A stretch of DNA of 32,000 bases from Dickeya dadantii NCPPB 898. GTDB taxonomy: Bacteria > Pseudomonadota > Gammaproteobacteria > Enterobacterales > Enterobacteriaceae. Shown piece by piece: positions 7,888 through 28,550 of this stretch. Location: the NCBI RefSeq assembly GCF_000406145.1, contig NZ_CM001976.1:4362380-4394379 (forward strand), in the 5' to 3' direction. The notes under the pieces are model-generated. The model did not search any database. It saw only the letters and a program-made list of their open reading frames with translations, and had not been told where the DNA came from. Made by a program: the position numbers and the translations under genes. Every line of letters starts with the position of its first letter. Within the stretch, counting starts at the first letter, position 1.

Positions 7888-10017
7888 ATGCGCACAATAC
7901 TCATCATATTGGCTGTATTGTTTGCCTGTCTGATTGCGGTAGGGGGGATCATTGGCTATCTCATGTATCGTCGTCTTCTATTCGCCAAGCGTTTGCCAGT
8001 AACACCGTCGGGACATCGTCAGCTGACGGCGTCGGAACGTATTGCCATTGAACGCTATCTGGCCATGTCCCATCTGGACGGCCCGGTTTCGTCATCCGTT
8101 TCGGTCGCGTCGCCGCGTCTGCCCCGTCTGCTGCCGGGCAACCGGGTTTACCCCATAACTCATAGCATTACCCGCTATGGGTTGAGTACCGATGCGCCCA
8201 ACAAATGGCGCTACTACATCGACACTCAGGAGATTCACCTGCCCGCGCGCTGGGAGCAATACATCACCCAGAACAATGAGATCGAGCTGATCAAAACCCG
8301 CTCGATCCCACTGGTGGTTTCACTGAACGGTCATTCGCTGACGGAATTCATCAATGAGATGGATTCCAGCGCCGGTGTCGACATCCCCGGCGAGCAGGCG
8401 TCGATTCGGCCGGAAGTCCATGAGCACACCGAACTGGTGGCGATTCGTCGGGAAACGCTGGAAGAACACGCCGTACACCGCTCACGCGGCCTGCGCGAAA
8501 CCGGGGTGCTGAGTCTGGCGTTTTTACTGCTGGTGTTCAGTCTGACCAGCCCGCTGGCCATGTTGCCCTGGCTGGCTGGCGCCGCCTGCCTCATGGCTGG
8601 CTGGGGATGCTGGCAACTGTTCCGCCCACCTTCGCAGAAAGAACTCCGCGAAGTGCATTGTCTGCACGGCACGCCACAATGCATGGGGTTGTTCAGCGAC
8701 GCCAGTCAAAGCCAGATCGGCAATGTCTCTCTCGGCAATATTGACCTCATCTATCCCCCTCACTGGCAGCCTTATATCGGCTACGATCTCGGCAGAAAAA
8801 CCGATGTAGATATCTACCTGACCCGTCAGGTCGTGCGCCAGGGCCATTACCTGTCATTACACAATGAAGTCAAATTCTTCCCGCTACAGCAATGGGGCAA
8901 AAACGCCGTACTGGCGGTTGGCGCGCTGTTGAGCCTGATTCTGCTGTTGACCTCGGTGCCGCTTGATCTGCCGCTGAAGCTCAGCCTGGCCTGGGTGCAG
9001 GGCACAAGTAGCGTTAAGGTGACTCAGGTAGAAGACCTGGAACGTATGCCGCTGCATATCGGCGACAAATTGCAGGTGCGCGGAGCCGGCATGTGCTACG
9101 TGCCGCCGATCAACCTTAACCCGACGTCCTCCCGAGCTTCCGCGTTTGCGCCGTTTGATTGCGCCGCCATTTACTGGAACAAGGCCGCGCCTCTGCCGCT
9201 GCCCGAGTCGGACACCATTGAGAAAACCACCGCGCTGCAAAAGACGGTCAACGAGCAGTTACACCCGGCCGCCAGCGACAATCAGGTCAGTTCGCAACTG
9301 GCGGACGCCATCCAGAAATCCGGCATGATTCTGCTGAATAATTTCTCGGATATCGTACTGAAAACCGATGCACTGTGTGAAAAAGAAGAAGATTGCACCC
9401 GGCTCAAAAACGCGTTGATCAATCTGGGCAACGCCAAGAACTGGGAGCTGCTGGTCAAACGGGCGCGTTCCGGCGCGCTGAAAGGCATGAGCGTGGTGCT
9501 GCGCCCGGTGAGCGCCGAGTCACTGGATTCGCTGGTGAAAAACGCGACCGACGAGTTCTACAGCCGCGAAATCATCACCGCGTCCAATTCGCTGAACAGT
9601 CCGCCGCCGGGCGGTTTTCTGATTCGCAGCGACGAAGGCCGCCAGTTCGTCAATCATCAAATGCCCGCCACGCCGCTGCGCGATTTCCCGCCGCAGGAGC
9701 AATGGCAGGAACTGCAACGTCTGTCATCAATGCTGCTGCACACGCCGTTCGAAGCCAATGGCGTGATTACCCAACTGAGCATCGATGCCAACGGCACCCG
9801 CCATATTTCGCTGCACAGCGAACCTGATGCGGTCACCATGTGGCGCTCGCTGGGCGCCTGCCTGCTGTTGCTGGCCTTCAGCGTCATTCTGATACTGAAT
9901 CTGGTGTTGCTGCTGGTGAAACGCCGCCGCAGTCAGCAGCGTATCGCCAATATCCAGCAATACTACGCTCGCCATCTGGTGCCGGAAACGCCCGTCGCCA
10001 CCGCCATGTACGGATAA
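7888..10017 (+). CDS. igaA: Intracellular growth attenuator IgaA/YrfF (Rcs phosphorelay inhibitor)
   Basis: 709 aa from the ATG at 7888, with a GGAG SD 5-6 nt upstream. Matches E. coli YrfF (HSITRYGLSTDAPNKWRYYIDTQEIHLP, multiple TM segments). The ORF-track start at 7834 adds 18 unsupported residues. Confidence 0.92.
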   Translation: MRTILIILAVLFACLIAVGGIIGYLMYRRLLFAKRLPVTPSGHRQLTASERIAIERYLAMSHLDGPVSSSVSVASPRLPRLLPGNRVYPITHSITRYGLSTDAPNKWRYYIDTQEIHLPARWEQYITQNNEIELIKTRSIPLVVSLNGHSLTEFINEMDSSAGVDIPGEQASIRPEVHEHTELVAIRRETLEEHAVHRSRGLRETGVLSLAFLLLVFSLTSPLAMLPWLAGAACLMAGWGCWQLFRPPSQKELREVHCLHGTPQCMGLFSDASQSQIGNVSLGNIDLIYPPHWQPYIGYDLGRKTDVDIYLTRQVVRQGHYLSLHNEVKFFPLQQWGKNAVLAVGALLSLILLLTSVPLDLPLKLSLAWVQGTSSVKVTQVEDLERMPLHIGDKLQVRGAGMCYVPPINLNPTSSRASAFAPFDCAAIYWNKAAPLPLPESDTIEKTTALQKTVNEQLHPAASDNQVSSQLADAIQKSGMILLNNFSDIVLKTDALCEKEEDCTRLKNALINLGNAKNWELLVKRARSGALKGMSVVLRPVSAESLDSLVKNATDEFYSREIITASNSLNSPPPGGFLIRSDEGRQFVNHQMPATPLRDFPPQEQWQELQRLSSMLLHTPFEANGVITQLSIDANGTRHISLHSEPDAVTMWRSLGACLLLLAFSVILILNLVLLLVKRRRSQQRIANIQQYYARHLVPETPVATAMYG

Positions 10018-10076
10018 TGTCGTTGCGCTCGGATCGGCGGACGTCGCTCCCGGCTCAGTACTCCACTCCCAGATAA

Positions 10077-10107
10077 GGTAACCGGCCGGCATGAACGGCC
10101 GGTTACC
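10077..10107 (+). terminator. Stem-loop downstream of igaA (possible terminator or attenuator)
   Basis: ggtaaccggccg-gcatgaa-cggccggttacc forms a 12-bp perfect stem, but no T-run follows. Confidence 0.4.
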
Positions 10108-10215
10108 TCAAACGGCGAGTGCGATCGGCCGCGTTTAGCGGTTATGCTACGCTGATAACATTGACGGTCCCGCTTCCGGCCTAACCGGAAACGGGGCATA
10201 TGTCCTGGAGTGTGC

Positions 10216-10920
10216 ATGAATCCCGAACTGAACTGGAATGAGATCGATACCGTCCTGCTGGATATGGACGGCACGCTGCTTGACCTGGCGTTCGACAGCT
10301 ATTTTTGGCTGCAACTGGTGCCGGAATCCCTGAGCCGTCAGCGCAATATCAGCCTGGATCAGGCTCAGCAATTGATCACCACGGAATATCAGGCGGTGCG
10401 CCATACCCTGAACTGGTATTGCTTTGATTACTGGAGCGACCGGTTGGGACTGGATATCTACCAGATGACTAGCGATATCGGCCACCGCGCCCGCCTGCGG
10501 GACGATACTACGCCGTTTCTGCATGCGCTGCGCGCAAGCGGCCGCCGAACTATTTTACTAACCAACGCCCATCCGCACAGCCTGTCGGTCAAGGTAGCTC
10601 ACACCGGGCTTGATCGGCACCTTGATTTATTACTTTCCACCCATACTTATGGGTATCCCAAAGAAGATCAGCGACTATGGCGGTCCGTTCAGGCGGAAAC
10701 CGGGTTTAACCCGGCGCGTACGCTGTTTGTGGATGACAACGAGCCCATACTGGATGCCGCCAGAACGTTTGGCATTCGTTATTGTCTGGGCGTCAGTAAT
10801 CCTGATTCGACCTGCCGGCAGGAAACCCGCTTCCGGCAGCACCCGTCGATGAACGACTATCTGGCGTTGCTCCCGGGCATCCACCAGTCGGTTCCCGTCG
10901 GCAATCAGGAGTGTTCATGA
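10216..10920 (+). CDS. yrfG: GMP/IMP nucleotidase YrfG (HAD superfamily)
   Basis: HAD motif I is present (VLLDMDGTLLDLAFD), and NWYCFDYWSDRLGLDI and LLSTHTYGYPKEDQRLW match E. coli YrfG. The ATG at 10216 is preceded by GGAG. Confidence 0.9.
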   Translation: MNPELNWNEIDTVLLDMDGTLLDLAFDSYFWLQLVPESLSRQRNISLDQAQQLITTEYQAVRHTLNWYCFDYWSDRLGLDIYQMTSDIGHRARLRDDTTPFLHALRASGRRTILLTNAHPHSLSVKVAHTGLDRHLDLLLSTHTYGYPKEDQRLWRSVQAETGFNPARTLFVDDNEPILDAARTFGIRYCLGVSNPDSTCRQETRFRQHPSMNDYLALLPGIHQSVPVGNQECS

Positions 10921-19951: not shown

Positions 19952-22297
19952 ATGACGAATGCATTAAGCCAGATTATTGCCAGCGAACTGCAGGCACGTA
20001 ACGAACAGGTCAGTGCGGCCATCCAACTGCTGGACGAGGGCAACACGGTTCCTTTTATCGCCCGTTACCGTAAAGAAGTCACCGGCGGGCTGGACGACAC
20101 CCAACTGCGTCAGTTGGAAACTCGCTTGTCTTACCTGCGCGAGCTGGAAGAGCGCCGCCAGACCATCCTCAAATCGATTGAGGAACAGGGCAAGCTGACC
20201 GACGCGCTGGCGACGTCGATCAACACCACCCTCAGCAAAACCGAGCTGGAAGACCTCTACCTGCCTTACAAACCCAAACGCCGCACGCGTGGGCAAATCG
20301 CCATCGAAGCCGGACTGGAGCCGCTGGCGGACAGCCTGTGGAACGACCCGAGCCAGACGCCGGAACTCGTCGCCGAGGCTTACATTAACGCCGATAACGG
20401 CGTGGCCGACGTCAAAGCCGCACTGGACGGCGCGCGCTATATTCTGATGGAGCGCTTTGCCGAAGACGCCGCGCTGCTGGCCAAGGTGCGTGATTACCTG
20501 TGGAAAAACGCCCATCTGGTGTCCCGCGTGGTGGAAGGCAAAGAGGAAGACGGCGCGAAATTCCGCGACTACTTCGACCACCACGAACCGCTGTCGCAGG
20601 TGCCGTCACACCGGGCGCTGGCGATGTTCCGCGGCCGTAACGAAGGCGTGTTGCAACTGTCGCTTAACGCCGATCCGCAGTTTGACGAACCGCCGAAAGA
20701 GAGCCACTGCGAGCACATCATCATCGAGCATCTGGGATTACGTCTCGGCAACGCACCGGCGGACGGCTGGCGGCGCGCGGTGGTGAACTGGACCTGGCGC
20801 ATCAAGGTGCTGCTGCATCTGGAAACCGAACTGATGGGCAGCGTGCGCGAAAAAGCCGAAGACGAAGCCATCAACGTATTTGCCCGCAACCTGCACGACC
20901 TGCTGATGGCGGCGCCCGCCGGCATGCGCGCGACGATGGGGCTGGACCCCGGCCTGCGCACCGGCGTGAAAGTGGCGGTGGTGGACGCCACCGGCAAGCT
21001 GGTGGCGACCGATACTATTTATCCGCACACCGGTCAGGCCGCCAAAGCGGCCACCGTGGTCGCGGCGCTATGCATCAAGCATCAGGTGGAACTGGTCGCC
21101 ATCGGCAACGGCACCGCTTCGCGCGAAACCGAGCGTTTCTTCCTCGACACCCAGAAACAGTTCCCGGACGTAAAAGCGCAGAAAGTCATCGTCAGCGAAG
21201 CGGGCGCGTCGGTGTATTCCGCCTCCGAGCTGGCGGCGCTGGAGTTCCCGGATCTGGACGTGTCGCTGCGCGGCGCGGTATCCATCGCCCGCCGCTTGCA
21301 GGACCCGCTGTCAGAACTGGTCAAGATCGACCCGAAATCCATCGGCGTCGGCCAGTACCAGCATGACGTCAGCCAGACCCAACTGGCGAAAAAACTGGAG
21401 GCGGTGGTAGAAGACTGCGTGAACGGCGTCGGCGTCGACCTCAATACCGCCTCGGTGCCGCTACTGACCCGCGTAGCCGGCCTTACCCGGCTGATGGCGC
21501 AGAACATCGTGAGCTGGCGTGACGAAAACGGGCGCTTCAACAACCGCGACCAGTTGCTGAAAGTCAGCCGCCTCGGCCCGAAGGCCTTTGAGCAGTGCGC
21601 CGGCTTCCTGCGCATCAACCACGGCGACAACCCGCTCGATGCCTCCACCGTCCACCCGGAAGCCTACCCGGTGGTGGAGCGTATTCTAGCCGCCACCGAG
21701 CAGAAACTGCAGGATCTGATGGGCAATGCCAGCGCGCTGCGCAGCCTGAAACCAGCCAGCTTTACCGACGATCGTTTCGGGGTGCCCACCGTCACCGACA
21801 TCATCAAAGAGCTGGAAAAACCGGGGCGCGACCCGCGGCCGGAATTCAAGACCGCCAGCTTCGCCGACGGGGTGGAAACCCTCAACGACCTGCTGCCGGG
21901 CATGATTCTGGAAGGCGCCGTCACCAACGTCACCAACTTCGGCGCGTTTGTGGATATCGGCGTCCATCAGGACGGACTGGTGCACATCTCCTCCTTGTCG
22001 GATCGCTTCGTGGAAGACCCGCATCAGGTGGTGAAAGCCGGTGACATCGTTAAGGTGAAAGTGCTGGAAGTGGATCTGCAGCGTAAGCGCATTGCGCTGA
22101 CCATGCGGCTGGACGAACAGCCGGGCGAGGGCAACAGCCGTCGCGGCAGCGGCGGACGCGAGCGCGACAACGGCAATAATAATGCATCGCGCCCATCGCA
22201 AGCGGGGAACAAGGCTCGTCCGCGCCAGAGCAACGCCCCGGCAAGCGGCAACAGCGCCATGAGCGACGCGCTGGCGGCGGCGTTTAAGAAGCGGTGA
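19952..22297 (+). CDS. yhgF: Transcription accessory protein Tex/YhgF (S1 RNA-binding domain protein)
   Basis: 781 aa with N-terminal [19 protein letters not shown] and a C-terminal S1 domain ([38 protein letters not shown]), followed by a basic low-complexity tail. Confidence 0.93.
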
Positions 22298-22306
22298 TAT
22301 CTCTGT

Positions 22307-22336
22307 CAGGGTTCAGGCTATCGAGCCTGAACCCTG
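22307..22336 (+). terminator. Stem-loop terminator after tex
   Basis: cagggttcaggct-atcg-agcctgaaccctg forms a 13-bp perfect stem 10 nt after the stop. Only a weak T-tract follows (tattc). Confidence 0.6.
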
Positions 22337-22456
22337 TATTCAGGAACGGTGACCGGCGTATCATGTCCGAATGATGTGCGTATGCTAAAGAACAACAATT
22401 TTTATCAAGGCTAGCTGTATGAAAATTATTTTAAATAACTCAAAAGGAAATTACAC

Positions 22457-22918
22457 ATGGATACAGTGGAAGAAATAGGTGGAACATATTTTTATAATGG
22501 GATGATAAATTTAAGCGCAGGAGAATTATTCTTCTGGGTCATGGTTGATGAAACCATGAAACACTTTGGCATTGATGATGCCCTCGCTATGAGCATGATT
22601 CTTTTAGGGCGAAATGATCAAGAGACAAGAAGAAAACCGTCCGGTGCAATAAAAGGAACGTCATTATCTAGCATATACTCCAGGCGAATATTCAAAAAAA
22701 CAAAAATCCCACTGGGAATATCATTACCAACGATTATTGGTGGTCCAATCCAAGGATTAAAGATAAGATTTGTTAGGAACCTAGGGACATTTGTTGGCAG
22801 GACAATACCTGTCTTAGGTTGGGCAATATTAATTTGCGATGTAAGCACCATATCCTATAATACTGTACGACACTACAATCAGATAGCCAGAGGAGAGGAT
22901 AAACTATATGGAAATTAA
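22457..22918 (+). CDS. Uncharacterised 153-aa basic protein (STM2901-family-like); candidate toxin/effector
   Basis: AT-rich ORF with an AAGGAA SD 8 nt upstream. It contains GTYFYNG..LSAGELFF, a basic stretch (RRKPSGAIKG..SRRIFKKTK), and Gly/hydrophobic segments ISLPTIIGGPIQGL and TIPVLGWAILICDVSTI. By hand count it has 18 K/R and 13 D/E. The family assignment is from memory only. Confidence 0.7.
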   Translation: MDTVEEIGGTYFYNGMINLSAGELFFWVMVDETMKHFGIDDALAMSMILLGRNDQETRRKPSGAIKGTSLSSIYSRRIFKKTKIPLGISLPTIIGGPIQGLKIRFVRNLGTFVGRTIPVLGWAILICDVSTISYNTVRHYNQIARGEDKLYGN

Positions 22919-23243
22919 CAAGAAGGAAATAATAAACTTGGTAAAGAGACACGCTGGAGTGTCAATAACCCCATATCAAAAAGAAATAACAGAGGAAAGT
23001 ATAATAAACTCAGATTTTGATTTTGATGATGATGAGATACAGGCATTGATGTCTGATTTCTTTAAAGAATTCGACGTCACTCCAGATAATTTTAATGTGA
23101 AAAATTATTATTATGATTATTCAGATTATAGCTTTCTATCTCTTTTAAACCCTTTTAAAAAGATAGAAAAACCAGAATTAAAAATATTATCTGTAGCAAT
23201 GCTTATAGAATCTGCAAGATTAGGGTGCTGGCTTTACGACTAA
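22908..23243 (+). CDS. DUF1493-like 111-aa acidic protein (ACP-like fold family); candidate immunity/partner protein
   Basis: It overlaps the upstream ORF by 11 nt, and an AGGAGAGG SD lies inside the upstream ORF. By hand count it has 21 D/E and 12 K/R, with no signal peptide or TM segment. The C-terminal LSVAMLIESARLGCWLYD resembles the DUF1493 (PF07377) C-terminus as I recall it. Confidence 0.7.
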   Translation: MEINKKEIINLVKRHAGVSITPYQKEITEESIINSDFDFDDDEIQALMSDFFKEFDVTPDNFNVKNYYYDYSDYSFLSLLNPFKKIEKPELKILSVAMLIESARLGCWLYD

Positions 23244-23307
23244 CCTCCGAAGTGCATACTATACCCATCATGTTTCAAATTTCAGTTTAGGGTATATGTT
23301 TCGGAGG
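23244..23307. terminator. Imperfect long hairpin between the convergent DUF1493-like gene and hcp (bidirectional terminator candidate)
   Basis: cctccgaagtgcatactataccc (23244-23266) pairs imperfectly with gggtatatgtttcggagg (23290-23307). The loop and flanks are AT-rich. Confidence 0.45.
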
Positions 23308-23334
23308 CCATTAGAAATAATATTAATCTATTCG

Positions 23335-23811
23335 TTATATCCCATCATGCCAGATACTATAACCAGAAGTACCTGCAGCTTTATGCGACCAAGATATGCT
23401 CTTATATTTAAGCATAATCTCTTCATACGGGATTGATTCTGTATTATTTATAGAGTGTGGATACGATGAAGATACAGATACTACTCTGGCATCAGCCAAT
23501 GTTAATTCATAAAAAACTTCCAACTTCCCAGCAGAATTCGTTCTATAGAAGAAAAAATGTGCCGTTAGTTTTTCATTTGAGGTAATGGAAACCCCTAAGA
23601 GCGGAGAGGATTTATCGATAGGCTTTACTAATTGTATCGGATGATGAGCTACATTATCATCTCGTGTTATAGTATGGTTCAATCCTAATACCTGTATCTG
23701 ATCTTCATGTCCAGACTGATAACGATTACCGATAGAATCTATAGTAGAACAGCCAGAAGAAATTAATCCCTGCTGATCACCTTCCAAAGTTAGGTAAATA
23801 AGATATGACAT
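23335..23811 (-). CDS. hcp: Type VI secretion tube protein Hcp (TssD), orphan copy
   Basis: 158 aa. YLTLEGDQQGLISSGCSTIDSIGNRYQSGHEDQIQVL ... KPIDKSSPLL ... FYRTN..G..E.FY ... SWSHKAAGTSGYSIW matches the Hcp family pattern. An AAGGA SD is present, and the composition is AT-rich. Confidence 0.88.
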   Translation of the reverse strand: MSYLIYLTLEGDQQGLISSGCSTIDSIGNRYQSGHEDQIQVLGLNHTITRDDNVAHHPIQLVKPIDKSSPLLGVSITSNEKLTAHFFFYRTNSAGKLEVFYELTLADARVVSVSSSYPHSINNTESIPYEEIMLKYKSISWSHKAAGTSGYSIWHDGI

Positions 23812-23868
23812 TTGACATCCTTTTTTCTATTCAATCATCCACGTGTAATACTTTCTTTTAAAACTAGC

Positions 23869-23897
23869 ATTACATCGAACTGATTTAAATACAGCAA
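23869..23897 (-). promoter_or_regulatory. Candidate sigma70 promoter for hcp
   Basis: On the - strand: TTGCTG (-35, 23897-23892), a 17-nt spacer, then TGTAAT (-10, 23874-23869), about 55 nt upstream of the hcp ATG. This rests on sequence pattern only. Confidence 0.35.
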
Positions 23898-23966
23898 CCG
23901 AATCGCAGAGATCCTTGTATTACAATCCCCGCATTTTGATAAACCATTCTCATTAATCTACCGCAT

Positions 23967-24740
23967 CTATAGACTTTCCCCCACAAACCCCACCACATGC
24001 TCCACAAACGCTTCCGGATGGGAGATAAACGGCGCGTGGGCGGCTTTTGGTATTACCACGGAAGTAGAGTGCGGGTACTGTTCGTCCATCAGCGCGGCGA
24101 CTTTGCGCGGCACCAGCCCGTCCAGCGCGCCGTAAAGGCGCAGGAACGGCATCGTCAGTGTGGTCAACGGTTCACGCAGGTCGGTATCGCGCAGAATCCC
24201 CAGCCCGGCGTTCAGCACGTCGGTAGTAGGCGCCGGTTGGCCGGACAGCGCCACTTTCAGCAAGCGGGCGTCTTTTCTGGCGTTTTCGGTACCCAGCGTC
24301 TGCAACGCCAGAAAGCGCTCGATGGTGCCGAGGAAATCGTCGCTCAGCATTTGCTGGAAACCGGATAACACCTGCGGGCGGATGCCCGGCCAGCTATCGC
24401 GCGCTTCAAAGCAAGGGGACGACGCCAGCGTGATCAGCGCATTGACCCGTTCCGGCGCGCTCAGCGCCGCCTGGCTGGCCACCAGCCCGCCCAGCGACCA
24501 GCCTAACCACACCGCCCGCTCCGGCGCCTGCGACAGTACCTGCTGCGCCATATCGGCAAGCGACATCACCCCGAATCCCTGACTCTGCCCATAACCCGGC
24601 AGGTCCACCCGGTGCAGCCTGAAATGCGGGGCCAGCCGCATGACGATGCTGTTCCACACCTGCGAATTCATTCCCCAACCGTGCAGCATCACAAGTTCGC
24701 ATGTTCCTTCCCCTTCCGTTTGCCAGTGCAGTGCTTCCAT
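23967..24740 (-). CDS. bioH: Pimeloyl-ACP methyl ester carboxylesterase BioH
   Basis: 257 aa alpha/beta hydrolase with [14 protein letters not shown] and the nucleophile elbow GWSLGG. It is divergent from gntX, as in E. coli. Confidence 0.93.
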
Positions 24741-26155: not shown

Positions 26156-26240
26156 TAGGGCGTCACGCCGATATTGATAGGACGTCACGCCAATATCGAT
26201 AGAACGTCATGCCGATAATTGATAGGACGTCATACCGCTC
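26152..26240 (+). repeat. 22-bp tandem repeat x4 (TTGATAGGRCGTCAYGCCRATA) starting on the nfuA stop codon
   Basis: Copies at 26152-26173, 26174-26195 (20/22 identical), 26196-26218 and 26219-26240 (3' end diverged). Each contains the near-palindrome GRCGTCAY. Confidence 0.9.
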
Positions 26241-28550
26241 GGATGCCATGATGCGGTACGGCGCTTACCTGATGCGAAGCTGACGATAGGTTCCGTCGAG
26301 CCGGTTTTGATTATCACGGGCGGCCAGTCACCTGACCGCCCGTCGTTTTTCCCGGCGACGCTCACTCGCCACTCAGGCTTTTTTCGTTTCTTTTTTCGTT
26401 TCTTTTTTTTGTCTTCTTTCTTCGTCTCTTCTGGCTTCTCATCACCTGCCGTTTTCACCGTTTTCCGGGTCCGCGACGGCACCGGTCCGCCACGGCGCAA
26501 ATCGATATCCCGAATCAGCCGCTCCAGATAGCGGTCGGTAAAAATGGAATCCAGCGAACGGCTCAGCTTGCGCCGCCAGTTGGGATATTCCTGATGAGTG
26601 CCCGGCACATTCACCGGCGTCGCCATGTCCAGCCAGTCCTCAAGCTGCAATCCCAGCAGCGCGCTGGCGCTGTCGGCCAGATAGCGCTGCACCCCACGGT
26701 TAAGCTGGGCGCTCATGGTCGTGAGCGAGGCATTACGCCCGACCCGCTGCGGCAGCAAGCCTTGCTCATGCAGGGCGTCAAGCAGCCCCTGCTTGGCGCT
26801 TTCCCGCGCGTCGTGCTGCTGTTGCAATAATGCGTCGGTGGGATACAGCCCAAGATCCTTGCCCAGCGTCAGGTCGACGCCCTGCCAGTAGCCACGCAGC
26901 GTCGCCAGATCATGGGTGGTGATGGTCGCCATTGAGCGGGGCGGATACGCGTCCGGCGCGCGAAAACGATCGTGCTGATCCTTTTCAAAAAACAAGCACC
27001 TTATAGGAATAAATACTGTTGTCAGGCAGTTTATTGACGATCTCCTCCGGCACCGTCCCCAGATCCTCGCCGATCACCAGACAGCGATGACGATGGCTTT
27101 CCAGCGCCAGGATCCCCAGCAGGTCATCCACCGGATACCGCACATAGGCGCCGTGGGTAGCGGTGTGGCCGTTCAGAATCCACCACAGCCGCAGCAGCCC
27201 CATCACATGGTCGATACGCAGCGCGCCGCTGTGCGCCATATTACTGCGCAGCAGGTCGATAAACGGCTGATAGCCGCGCTGGCGCAGCAGAATCGGGTGC
27301 ATCGGCGTCAGGTTCCAGTTCTGTCCGCCCGGCCCCAGCGGGTCCGGCGGCGCGCCAAGCGTCACCGACATGCAGTGCAATTGCTGATCGCCCCAGGTAT
27401 CCACGCCGCCCTGCGCCACCCCCACCGCCAGATCGCGGTACAGGCCGATAGGCATGCCCAGTTGTTTGCTGTGGGAAAAACAGGCCGCCAGCTGTTCATG
27501 CGCCAGCCACTGTAGCCAGCAATAAAACCGCACGTCGTCGGCGTGCTCCTGGCGGAATCGCAGCGAGGCGTCGCTGCGCGCGTCGTGGTATTCCCGCGGC
27601 CACTGCAACCAGTCGGCGGCCGGTTGGCCCTGCGTCTTCAGCCACGCCTGCAACGCGTCGTAAGTCGCCTGCTGCAACAGGCTTTCATCGTGGGTTTTCA
27701 GAAATTGCTGGAAGGCGGTCTTGCGCGGGTCCAGTGCGTTGCGGCGATTGAAGTGATTGAACGCCAGCCGCAGCGCCGTCAGTTTCAGGCTGGTGACCGC
27801 GGCGTAATCCACCCAGCGGCTGGCACGGGCGGCGGTCAGCCGCCGCTGAACGTCGTCCTGTTTCCACCACTCGCCGGCGGCATCGCTCTGATGAAAATCA
27901 TCCACCTGATTCACATCGATATAGATAACATTCAGCCAGTTGCGCGATGACGGGCTGTACGGGCTGGCGGCCTCCGGCTCTGCCGGATAAAGCGCGTGCA
28001 ACGGGTTAAGGCCGACAAACGCGCCTCCCCGGCGCGCCACCTGTTCCACCAGCGTTTTCAGGTCGCCGAAATCGCCGATCCCCCAGTTATCCGACGAGCG
28101 CAGGGTATAAAGCTGCACCATGACGCCCCACCAGCGTTTGCCCTGCGTCAGCGGGTCCGGTTCGTAACACCGCGCCGGCGCCACAATCACCCGGCACGGC
28201 CACTGCTGTTCGCCCTGCGTCAGTATCAACTGGTGATAGCCGAGCGGCAGGTTGTCCGGCAACGCCAGCTCCGCCTGCCCGGTCGATCGCCCTTCGATGA
28301 TGCCGCCTTTTTCATAGGTGAGCGTCCAGCCATACTCGCCCTCGTCGCGCAGCGGCAACTTATTCTGTTGCCCCTGACGGAACACGCACACCGAAGGCAA
28401 CGGCGCTACCGCCGGATCCGCCACATCAAGCAGTTGCAGCAGTTTATCGCGGGTTTCCTGGTCTATCGCCTGTTCATTACCGTAAGCATCTTTATAGGTA
28501 TCAGCGATCCCCGGATGTTGGGGTACAGATTTTTTTGCTTTCAACGCCAT
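26207..28550 (-). pseudogene. malQ: 4-alpha-glucanotransferase (amylomaltase) MalQ, with the frame broken at a T6 run (26987-26992) and a 92-codon non-homologous Lys-rich tail
   Basis: The upstream part (28550-26985) matches E. coli MalQ through ...SIYSYKVLVF and then hits TGA. Homology continues in the +1 frame (FEKDQHDRFRAPDAYP...THDLATLRGYW...NWRRKLS). A T5 run would restore KVLVFEKDQH. A sequencing error cannot be excluded. Confidence 0.7.
26316..26350 (+). terminator. Rho-independent terminator of nfuA
   Basis: acgggcgg-ccagtcacctga-ccgcccgt forms an 8-bp stem, followed by cgttttt. It is oriented for the + strand only and lies inside the extended malQ reading frame. Confidence 0.65.

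Follow-up and report, generated by a model that had tools for sequence, protein, structure and literature searches.

What would a small basic protein and its overlapping acidic partner do beside an orphan type VI secretion system (T6SS) gene? The question is raised by a 32,000-nucleotide (nt) stretch of the genome of Dickeya dadantii NCPPB 898 (contig NZ_CM001976.1, positions 4,362,380 to 4,394,379), which is called the window here. Within it, open reading frame 1 (ORF1; 22457..22918, plus strand), ORF2 (22908..23243, plus strand) and a convergent orphan hcp (23335..23811, minus strand), which encodes a T6SS tube protein and effector carrier, form an AT-rich islet of 1.6 kb with a GC fraction of about 0.35, compared to about 0.6 around it. 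Sequence comparisons suggest that the two ORFs encode a free-standing pair of toxin and immunity protein of the polymorphic type, most likely cargo of Hcp for the Dickeya T6SS, and the probability of this reading is put at roughly 0.6. A toxin-immunity relationship between the two proteins is by itself highly probable, delivery of the Dickeya copy by Hcp and the T6SS is somewhat favored, and any specific biochemical activity proposed for ORF1 would be doubtful. The initial annotation of the window had proposed an undescribed effector-immunity module tied to hcp, and support for this now comes from hcp adjacency, precedent for Hcp cargo, fusions to Rhs toxins, and asymmetric gene decay.

ORF1 and ORF2 overlap by 11 nt (22908-22918), and the Shine-Dalgarno sequence of ORF2, GAGGAGAGG (22890..22898, plus strand), falls within ORF1 and is 9 nt upstream from the start codon (ATG) of ORF2. 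The internal Shine-Dalgarno sequence and the overlap indicate that the two genes are translationally coupled. Coordinates, overlap, and Shine-Dalgarno sequence are all as first annotated, and the neighboring gene is a genuine hcp. Its product (158 amino acids) matches TIGR03344 with 191.3 bits (cutoff 58.9) and PF05638 with 83.4 bits (cutoff 23.5).

The STM2901 and DUF1493 protein families

ORF1 belongs to the STM2901 family and ORF2 to DUF1493, which confirms the two resemblances given in the initial annotation. ORF1 (153 amino acids, 17.1 kDa, isoelectric point 9.5) matches the NCBIfam profile NF045926, "STM2901 family", with 192.1 bits against a cutoff of 110, over profile positions 2-140 of 140. 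This family is the same as Pfam PF26636 (DUF8209), and its homologs and Rhs fusions carry precomputed PF26636 annotations. ORF2 (111 amino acids, isoelectric point 4.5) matches Pfam PF07377 (DUF1493) with 75.1 bits against a cutoff of 21 (E = 8e-21), over profile positions 5-108 of 108. A protein recorded from D. dadantii is 100% identical to ORF2, and at least seven species of Dickeya have named DUF1493 homologs. The charge counts given earlier are exact: ORF1 has 18 lysines and arginines and 13 aspartates and glutamates, while ORF2 has 12 and 21, respectively, and has no signal peptide or transmembrane segment. The charge asymmetry is found across the families, with a median isoelectric point of 9.65 for the ORF1 family and 4.66 for the ORF2 family.

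The earlier statement that no experimentally defined function is known for either family agrees with the literature. No functional study of DUF1493, STM2901/DUF8209, or pigA/pigB was found (subscription-only papers were outside the search), and none was found on immunity proteins resembling acyl carrier proteins (ACPs) or on the orphan hcp of Dickeya. The text of the polymorphic-toxin census of Zhang et al. 2012 mentions neither family, and the PHROG families that exist for both proteins are labeled "unknown function" only. In Salmonella Typhimurium STM2901 is pigA, which lies at the mutS-proximal edge of Salmonella pathogenicity island 1 directly before pigB (STM2902). The function of pigA is reported to be unknown, and several pig genes are regulated by HilC, with no virulence phenotype (PMC7232297).

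The pairing of STM2901 and DUF1493 genes is obligate and far beyond chance. One genome per species was scanned, and the best 80 of 199 loci were kept with 10 kb of flanking sequence on each side; they come from Enterobacterales, Burkholderia, and a few metagenome-assembled genomes. A DUF1493 gene lies directly downstream of 83 of the 84 full-length STM2901 genes in these 80 genomes, and the sole exception is cut by the end of a contig. The same 7-nt overlap is found in 66 of the 83 pairs. The distance matrices of the two families are strongly correlated (Mantel p = 0.001): the mirror-tree r is 0.78 for all pairs and rises to 0.91 among those linked to hcp. This shows inheritance as one unit and is consistent with physical interaction of the proteins, although linkage alone could yield the correlation. 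DUF1493 diverges faster, with a mean distance of 0.60 compared to 0.46 for STM2901. Both families are present in Dickeya, Salmonella, E. coli, Yersinia pestis, Serratia, Pantoea, Erwinia, and Burkholderia. Apart from Dickeya itself, it is Burkholderia that has the nearest relatives of the Dickeya pair (L002-L005; about 60-62% identity for ORF1), while those from other Enterobacterales are 47-58% identical, implying horizontal transfer between orders.

The position of DUF8209 in larger proteins points to a toxin. A profile of 33 STM2901 proteins was searched against 1.84 billion representative proteins, giving 620 matches, and the best 150 were examined. Thirty-five of these are proteins of 208-575 amino acids with DUF8209 (profile positions about 10-145) at the extreme C-terminus. 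Both Pfam search and precomputed annotation show RHS repeats and a YD-shell in P0338 and P0364, the annotation being RHS_repeat, TEN_YD-shell, and DUF8209. A strict pattern finds the Rhs core-end motif (...YDP...RF...DP...NP...DPxG) upstream of DUF8209 in at least 15 of these 35 proteins, and inspection by eye finds it in about 22; the motif is often followed by a glycine-rich hydrophobic linker. P0310, which also has DUF8209 at its C-terminus, has a lipoprotein-like N-terminus. A DUF1493 gene lies directly downstream of the fusion in four of six fusion loci (the low-GC metagenomic L109, L110, L113, and L114), with E-values of 3e-16, 7e-15, 4e-12, and, for a partial gene, 5e-7. L110 has three tandem DUF1493 copies after the fusion. 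The fusion in L109 lies downstream of a 2,311-amino-acid leucine-rich repeat/DUF6443 protein, and this locus looks like an array of orphan modules. A variable C-terminal toxin followed by an immunity gene is the defining architecture of polymorphic toxins, and it is the architecture formed by DUF8209 at the end of Rhs/YD proteins with DUF1493 downstream.

Free-standing and fused forms have a common core, consisting of G38, D41, G51, G67-T68-S69-x-x-S72, P91, G114-R115, P118, G121-W122, and D128. An invariant N-terminal MDTVE and a C-terminal D..LW tail are present in the free-standing proteins only and absent from the fusions, and they are candidates for elements that bind a carrier or the immunity protein. 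A distinct free-standing DUF8209 subfamily is formed by P0252, P0253, P0257, and P0262, which have 163-167 amino acids, the N-terminus MNEYE.LI..., and a conserved tail (...YNRLVKPEDQxNDxTxGSxG). This appendage suggests an alternative delivery or partner-binding element.

Gene decay affects the two partners unequally. About ten STM2901 copies in nine loci are disrupted, by stops in frame, by frameshifts, or by insertion of IS3, next to a DUF1493 gene that is intact (L011 twice, L017, L022, L027, L028, L034, L042, L077, and E. coli IAI39). The reverse, an intact STM2901 gene beside a broken DUF1493 gene, was never seen among the loci examined. Orphan DUF1493 genes are present in L033, L044, L062, L072, and L073, and also in arrays. 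Such one-sided decay, of toxin copies next to intact partners, is what a toxin with its antidote would be expected to show. In the independent genomes of L017, L034, L011, L027, and L077 (near 10001-10460) a single in-frame stop interrupts an otherwise full-length STM2901 gene and DUF1493 is intact; these copies probably represent toxin inactivation, with sequencing error or recoding as alternatives.

All three genes of the Dickeya islet are under purifying selection. The nearest genome locus is that of D. undicola, where the islet is syntenic. Between the two species the synonymous divergence of the islet (dS 0.33-0.37) is similar to that of the flanking bioH (0.45), and the ratios of nonsynonymous to synonymous divergence (dN/dS) of ORF1, ORF2, hcp, and bioH are 0.058, 0.228, 0.046, and 0.082, respectively. 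The selection on ORF1 indicates that the toxin gene is maintained and is not a relic.

Structure prediction suggests that ORF1 may represent a new toxin fold. Its AlphaFold2 model has a predicted local distance difference test score (pLDDT) of 75 and contains two beta-hairpins and five helices, the last comprising residues 109-143. Comparison of the model with the PDB gave no significant match, those listed being due to chance, and searching the PDB by sequence yielded nothing but spurious matches to OmpF (E about 0.2). The initial annotation had pointed to two stretches of ORF1 that might insert into membranes, a proposal that is weak overall. The classical threshold of hydropathy is reached by residues 109-127 alone, with a Kyte-Doolittle mean over 19 residues of 1.62 (the median of the family is 1.57). 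This borderline segment contains the invariant R115 and D128. The other stretch, ISLPTIIGG, is a beta-hairpin in the model.

DUF1493 is predicted to be an ACP-like acidic protein that lacks the carrier serine. A profile of 43 members matched almost exclusively ACPs in the PDB, with a best E-value of 3e-4 over helices I-II, and the likeness is limited to the N-terminal half. The column of the phosphopantetheine serine (DSL motif) is not conserved in the 43 members, which have D, E, V, or G there, and the most conserved part is the C-terminal helix (...MLIESAKAGRWLYD). Foldseek searches with the low-confidence model of ORF2 found nothing significant (E > 3), and the sole compact superpositions were with ACPs.

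Linkage to hcp and proposed delivery

The pair is strongly associated with hcp. For 77 pairs the sequence extends further downstream, and 34 of these (44%) have hcp as the next gene. The background is 4 hcp genes among 1,223 other flank genes (0.33%), giving an enrichment of more than 100-fold. The hcp gene is co-directional in 31 of the 34 cases, typically starting 4-24 nt after DUF1493, and convergent in three, as in the window. The co-directional STM2901, DUF1493, and hcp genes make up a predicted three-gene operon. Adjacency to hcp is scattered over at least five STM2901 clades. Two Hcp lineages less than 40% identical adjoin the pair, and the Dickeya Hcp is 25-30% identical to the Hcps of the cassettes. 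The multiple clades and the two Hcp lineages indicate that the association of the pair with hcp arose more than once.

The Hcp lineage of the window also precedes other candidate effectors. In Pectobacterium brasiliense the hcp gene is followed by a gene with a Tlde1 domain and then by an ORF of 87 amino acids. Linkage of Tlde1/Tae5-type effectors to orphan hcp genes has been interpreted as a sign of cargo carried in the Hcp lumen (10.1101/2020.02.18.954545), and D. dadantii has been reported to possess a tss cluster and six hcp genes (10.1101/391854). In Yersinia the same Hcp lineage is followed by an unannotated 290-amino-acid protein and then a DUF1240 protein (L103-L106; genes at about 6556-7819 of L103). 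These two genes look like another uncharacterized candidate pair of Hcp cargo and immunity protein.

In the favored reading, the overlapping genes would be translated together, and ORF2 would bind basic ORF1 one-to-one and neutralize it in the cytoplasm of the producing cell. Since ORF2 has no signal peptide or transmembrane segment, neutralization must be cytoplasmic, and this points to a toxin whose site of action is either the cytoplasm or the cytoplasmic side of the inner membrane. Dickeya would have kept the pair with its orphan Hcp, and ORF1 would most likely be loaded into the lumen of the Hcp hexamer. At 17 kDa it is within the size range of reported Hcp-lumen cargo. The host T6SS would then fire ORF1 into neighboring bacteria, where it would act in one of these two places, and kin cells would be protected by ORF2.

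Several observations weigh against this reading. No hcp gene is present within 10 kb of 41 of the 77 pairs. The initial annotation had looked to neighborhood statistics for a link with T6SS genes; hcp is strongly enriched, but VgrG, PAAR, Rhs, and the tss core are not, none of them recurring within two genes on either side of 36 hcp-linked cassettes. Co-evolution of Hcp with the pair is weak (r about 0.36-0.40). A pair beside hcp had been described as the classic cargo-immunity layout, and the adjacency is real, but the pair precedes hcp (the common order) or is convergent with it (the window), whereas the usual order is hcp, effector, immunity. The hcp of the window is not co-transcribed with the pair. 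The AlphaFold2 model of ORF2, made from a Dickeya-only alignment, is poor (pLDDT 59). Copies without hcp in a phage, on plasmids, and in islands of defence or toxin-antitoxin genes would also fit a role in defence or as a toxin-antitoxin system. Finally, small acidic proteins of another kind, not recognizable as DUF1493, follow the fusions in the higher-GC Rhs fusion loci L107 and L108.

These two proteins (L107:3805-4332, 175 amino acids; L108:1364-1669, 101 amino acids) are related to each other (E = 1.5e-10). The idea that they are divergent DUF1493 members was rejected, with hidden Markov model E-values of 0.18 and 2.7 and an hhalign probability below 1%. They may be a second immunity family for DUF8209.

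A location of the hcp-linked cassettes inside T6SS clusters or defence islands was also considered. It was rejected because the genes within two positions of the 36 hcp-linked loci, which represent 157 Pfam families, are mostly housekeeping genes.

Alternative explanations

The strongest rival is that the pair is never secreted and serves as a toxin-antitoxin, abortive-infection, or other defence module, or as an addiction module of mobile elements, with ORF1 acting in the producing cell upon loss or titration of ORF2. Adjacency to hcp would then result from shared variable hotspots. Such a role is unlikely for the pair in general, and it is a viable explanation specifically for the copies without hcp. 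It is common for secreted toxins to have domains that also occur in toxin-antitoxin or abortive-infection systems, and the overlapping basic/acidic layout is in keeping with a module of this kind. Mobile contexts are numerous. In Erwinia phage EtG (MF276773.2; L082:5001-5761), a complete P2-like phage, the pair lies on the opposite strand between the tail-fibre assembly gene and the sheath and tube genes, a known cargo slot that corresponds to the Z/fun hotspot. Copies without hcp are also found in an integrase island of Brenneria that carries HipBA and RelE/MqsA-like genes, and on Serratia plasmids beside Shedu, HEPN, and P-loop NTPase genes or beside VapBC. One cassette that does contain hcp adjoins symE-hsdRMS and RelB/YafQ. 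In Lelliottia (L093/L094:10001-11286) the STM2901-DUF1493-hcp cassette lies in an integrase/CI-repressor island, where it is next to genes for an MmeI-type restriction enzyme, a DEAD helicase, and T5orf172. In E. coli G3/10 (L097:9001-10309) it lies in a prophage cargo region with IS1, a RipA-family gene, DUF3800, and terminase. The presence of cassettes in a prophage and an integrase island shows that the hcp genes travel on mobile elements as well. Both proteins have PHROG families, and 158 of 72,556 plasmids carry the pair, 57 of them conjugative. The pair is present at icd-rluE, without hcp, in 375 of 5,426 complete E. coli genomes. As a separate observation, the EtG pair, a moron, coincidentally adjoins phage genes that are homologous to the sheath and tube of the T6SS.

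Other evidence argues against a non-secreted module. The domain of ORF1 is the tip of secreted Rhs/YD toxins, with DUF1493 downstream there too. A module of this kind does not explain why hcp directly follows in 44% of pairs, mostly in the same operon, and comes from two lineages. Neither protein matched a PADLOC-DB v2 model at E <= 1. ORF2 lies downstream of the toxin gene, and it matched no DNA-binding family of the helix-turn-helix, ribbon-helix-helix, or AbrB type, only DUF1493. The immediate neighbors of the hcp-linked cassettes are mostly housekeeping genes, and plasmid carriage amounts to just 0.2%.

A more speculative version of the secreted-toxin reading, which has a low probability, gives the ACP-likeness of DUF1493 a direct role. 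The three genes would be a portable cassette of carrier, cargo, and antidote. An antidote that mimics an ACP but has no serine would suggest that the toxin targets holo-ACP or the interface between ACP and its clients, and thus fatty-acid or lipid synthesis, with ORF2 blocking the toxin as a decoy. The cassette would hop between prophages, satellite-like islands, restriction and defence hotspots, and chromosomal islets, and any T6SS-positive host could use it to fire a toxin whose fold has not been seen before.

It is improbable that the pair is a decayed orphan C-terminal toxin/immunity cassette of an Rhs protein, no longer delivered and kept mainly so that ORF2 protects Dickeya against the DUF8209 toxins of competitors. 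DUF8209 does occur as an Rhs tip and in orphan-like arrays, and orphan DUF1493 genes and disrupted toxin copies are common. However, selection is stronger on ORF1 than on ORF2 (dN/dS 0.058 compared to 0.228), the free-standing forms have their own start codon and invariant termini that the fusions lack, and no remnant of an Rhs core is present upstream of ORF1 in the window.

Slightly less probable still is that ORF2 is a chaperone or adaptor that keeps a hydrophobic ORF1 soluble and loads it onto Hcp, with the true immunity gene elsewhere or absent. ORF2 is cytoplasmic, acidic, and translationally coupled, and ORF1 has a borderline-hydrophobic helix; if ORF1 were a pore former acting from the periplasmic side, a cytoplasmic partner could not protect recipients. 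On the other hand, DUF1493 also follows the Rhs-tip versions, which do not use Hcp, and does so in tandem arrays. Orphan DUF1493 genes persist without a toxin gene, and ORF2 diverges faster than ORF1, as is typical of immunity proteins.

Some automatic annotations name the two proteins "membrane protein" and "acyl carrier protein", and the DUF1493 profile has weak similarity to ACPs, so that one might think of a housekeeping membrane protein and an ACP with a role in the metabolism of lipids or secondary compounds. This reading is as good as refuted, since the phosphopantetheine serine is missing and the genomic contexts include no linked biosynthetic genes within two positions, a patchy island-like distribution, and Rhs fusions.

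The islet and comparison with known systems

The islet lies between tex (19952..22297, plus strand) on the left and a BioH-type hydrolase gene (23967..24740, minus strand) on the right. A perfect 13-bp inverted repeat with a 4-nt loop (22307..22336, plus strand; 100% complementary) is located just 3' of the tex stop codon; it is likely the tex terminator and the left edge of the islet. It is followed by an AT-rich leader (22337..22456, plus strand), the presumed promoter region of the ORF1-ORF2 operon, in which no convincing sigma-70 promoter match was found. Between the convergent ORF2 and hcp genes is a stable hairpin (23240..23314; dG -22.1 kcal/mol, z = -3.58), a probable bidirectional terminator. 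The AT-rich region upstream of hcp (23812..23966, minus strand) forms the right edge of the islet and abuts the stop codon of the BioH-type gene. No direct repeats or tRNA-type integration scar were found flanking the islet.

Further along the window, malQ (4-alpha-glucanotransferase; 26207-28550, minus strand) is split into two overlapping ORFs. One (26985..28550) matches Glyco_hydro_77 profile positions 1-352 and the other (26207..26995) positions 351-460, and the second bears an odd lysine-rich C-terminal extension (...KKEDKKKKRKKKRKK...). The split is a frameshift, due to either a pseudogene or a sequencing error.

If the favored reading of ORF1 and ORF2 as toxin and immunity protein is true, it would provide a function for two widespread families, DUF8209/STM2901 and DUF1493, and the known interbacterial weapons would gain a new fold of toxin as well as a new, ACP-like fold of immunity protein. 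A T6SS or toxin role would also lead to a reinterpretation of the Salmonella pig genes. The compact three-gene cassette, in which an effector comes with its own Hcp carrier, would bear on how T6SS arsenals spread and on the engineering of Hcp-based delivery. In Dickeya, a soft-rot plant pathogen, the pair would be a conserved competition module.

The closest known systems are the Rhs/YD polymorphic toxins and their RhsI immunity proteins, such as RhsA and RhsB of D. dadantii. Fusions of this type likewise have DUF8209 after the core-end motif and DUF1493 downstream, sometimes in tandem. The toxin of the window differs from them in being a free-standing protein of 153 amino acids with its own start codon and the additional MDTVE.../...D..LW residues, and the pair is linked to hcp instead of VgrG, PAAR, or Rhs. 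Tse2-Tsi2 of Pseudomonas aeruginosa, in which the toxin is cargo of the Hcp1 lumen, resembles ORF1 and ORF2 in consisting of a small toxin of about 17 kDa and a small acidic cytoplasmic partner with no signal peptide. The resemblance implies a toxin that acts in the cytoplasm and would have to be neutralized in the producing cell as well. No sequence or fold relationship between Tse2-Tsi2 and the pair was detected. A toxin acting in the cytoplasm or on the cytoplasmic side of the membrane would be in keeping with Rhs tips generally and with Tse2-Tsi2.

Three other systems share some of these features. Tlde1/Tae5-type effectors are connected to the window through its Hcp lineage, which in Pectobacterium precedes a Tlde1-domain gene and a small ORF. 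The toxin family is unrelated to ORF1, however, and Tlde1 acts in the periplasm and has a periplasmic immunity protein. The gene order is hcp, effector, immunity there, while STM2901-DUF1493 pairs precede hcp or are convergent with it. ACPs are matched by the DUF1493 profile in the PDB over helices I-II, but DUF1493 has no conserved serine and has an extra C-terminal part ending in a conserved helix. Type II toxin-antitoxin systems, like the pair, have overlapping coupled genes for a basic toxin and an acidic neutralizer and are frequent on mobile elements and in toxin-antitoxin or defence islands. The pair differs from them in that its protective gene is downstream and has no DNA-binding domain, its toxin domain is common to Rhs toxins, and it is linked to hcp.

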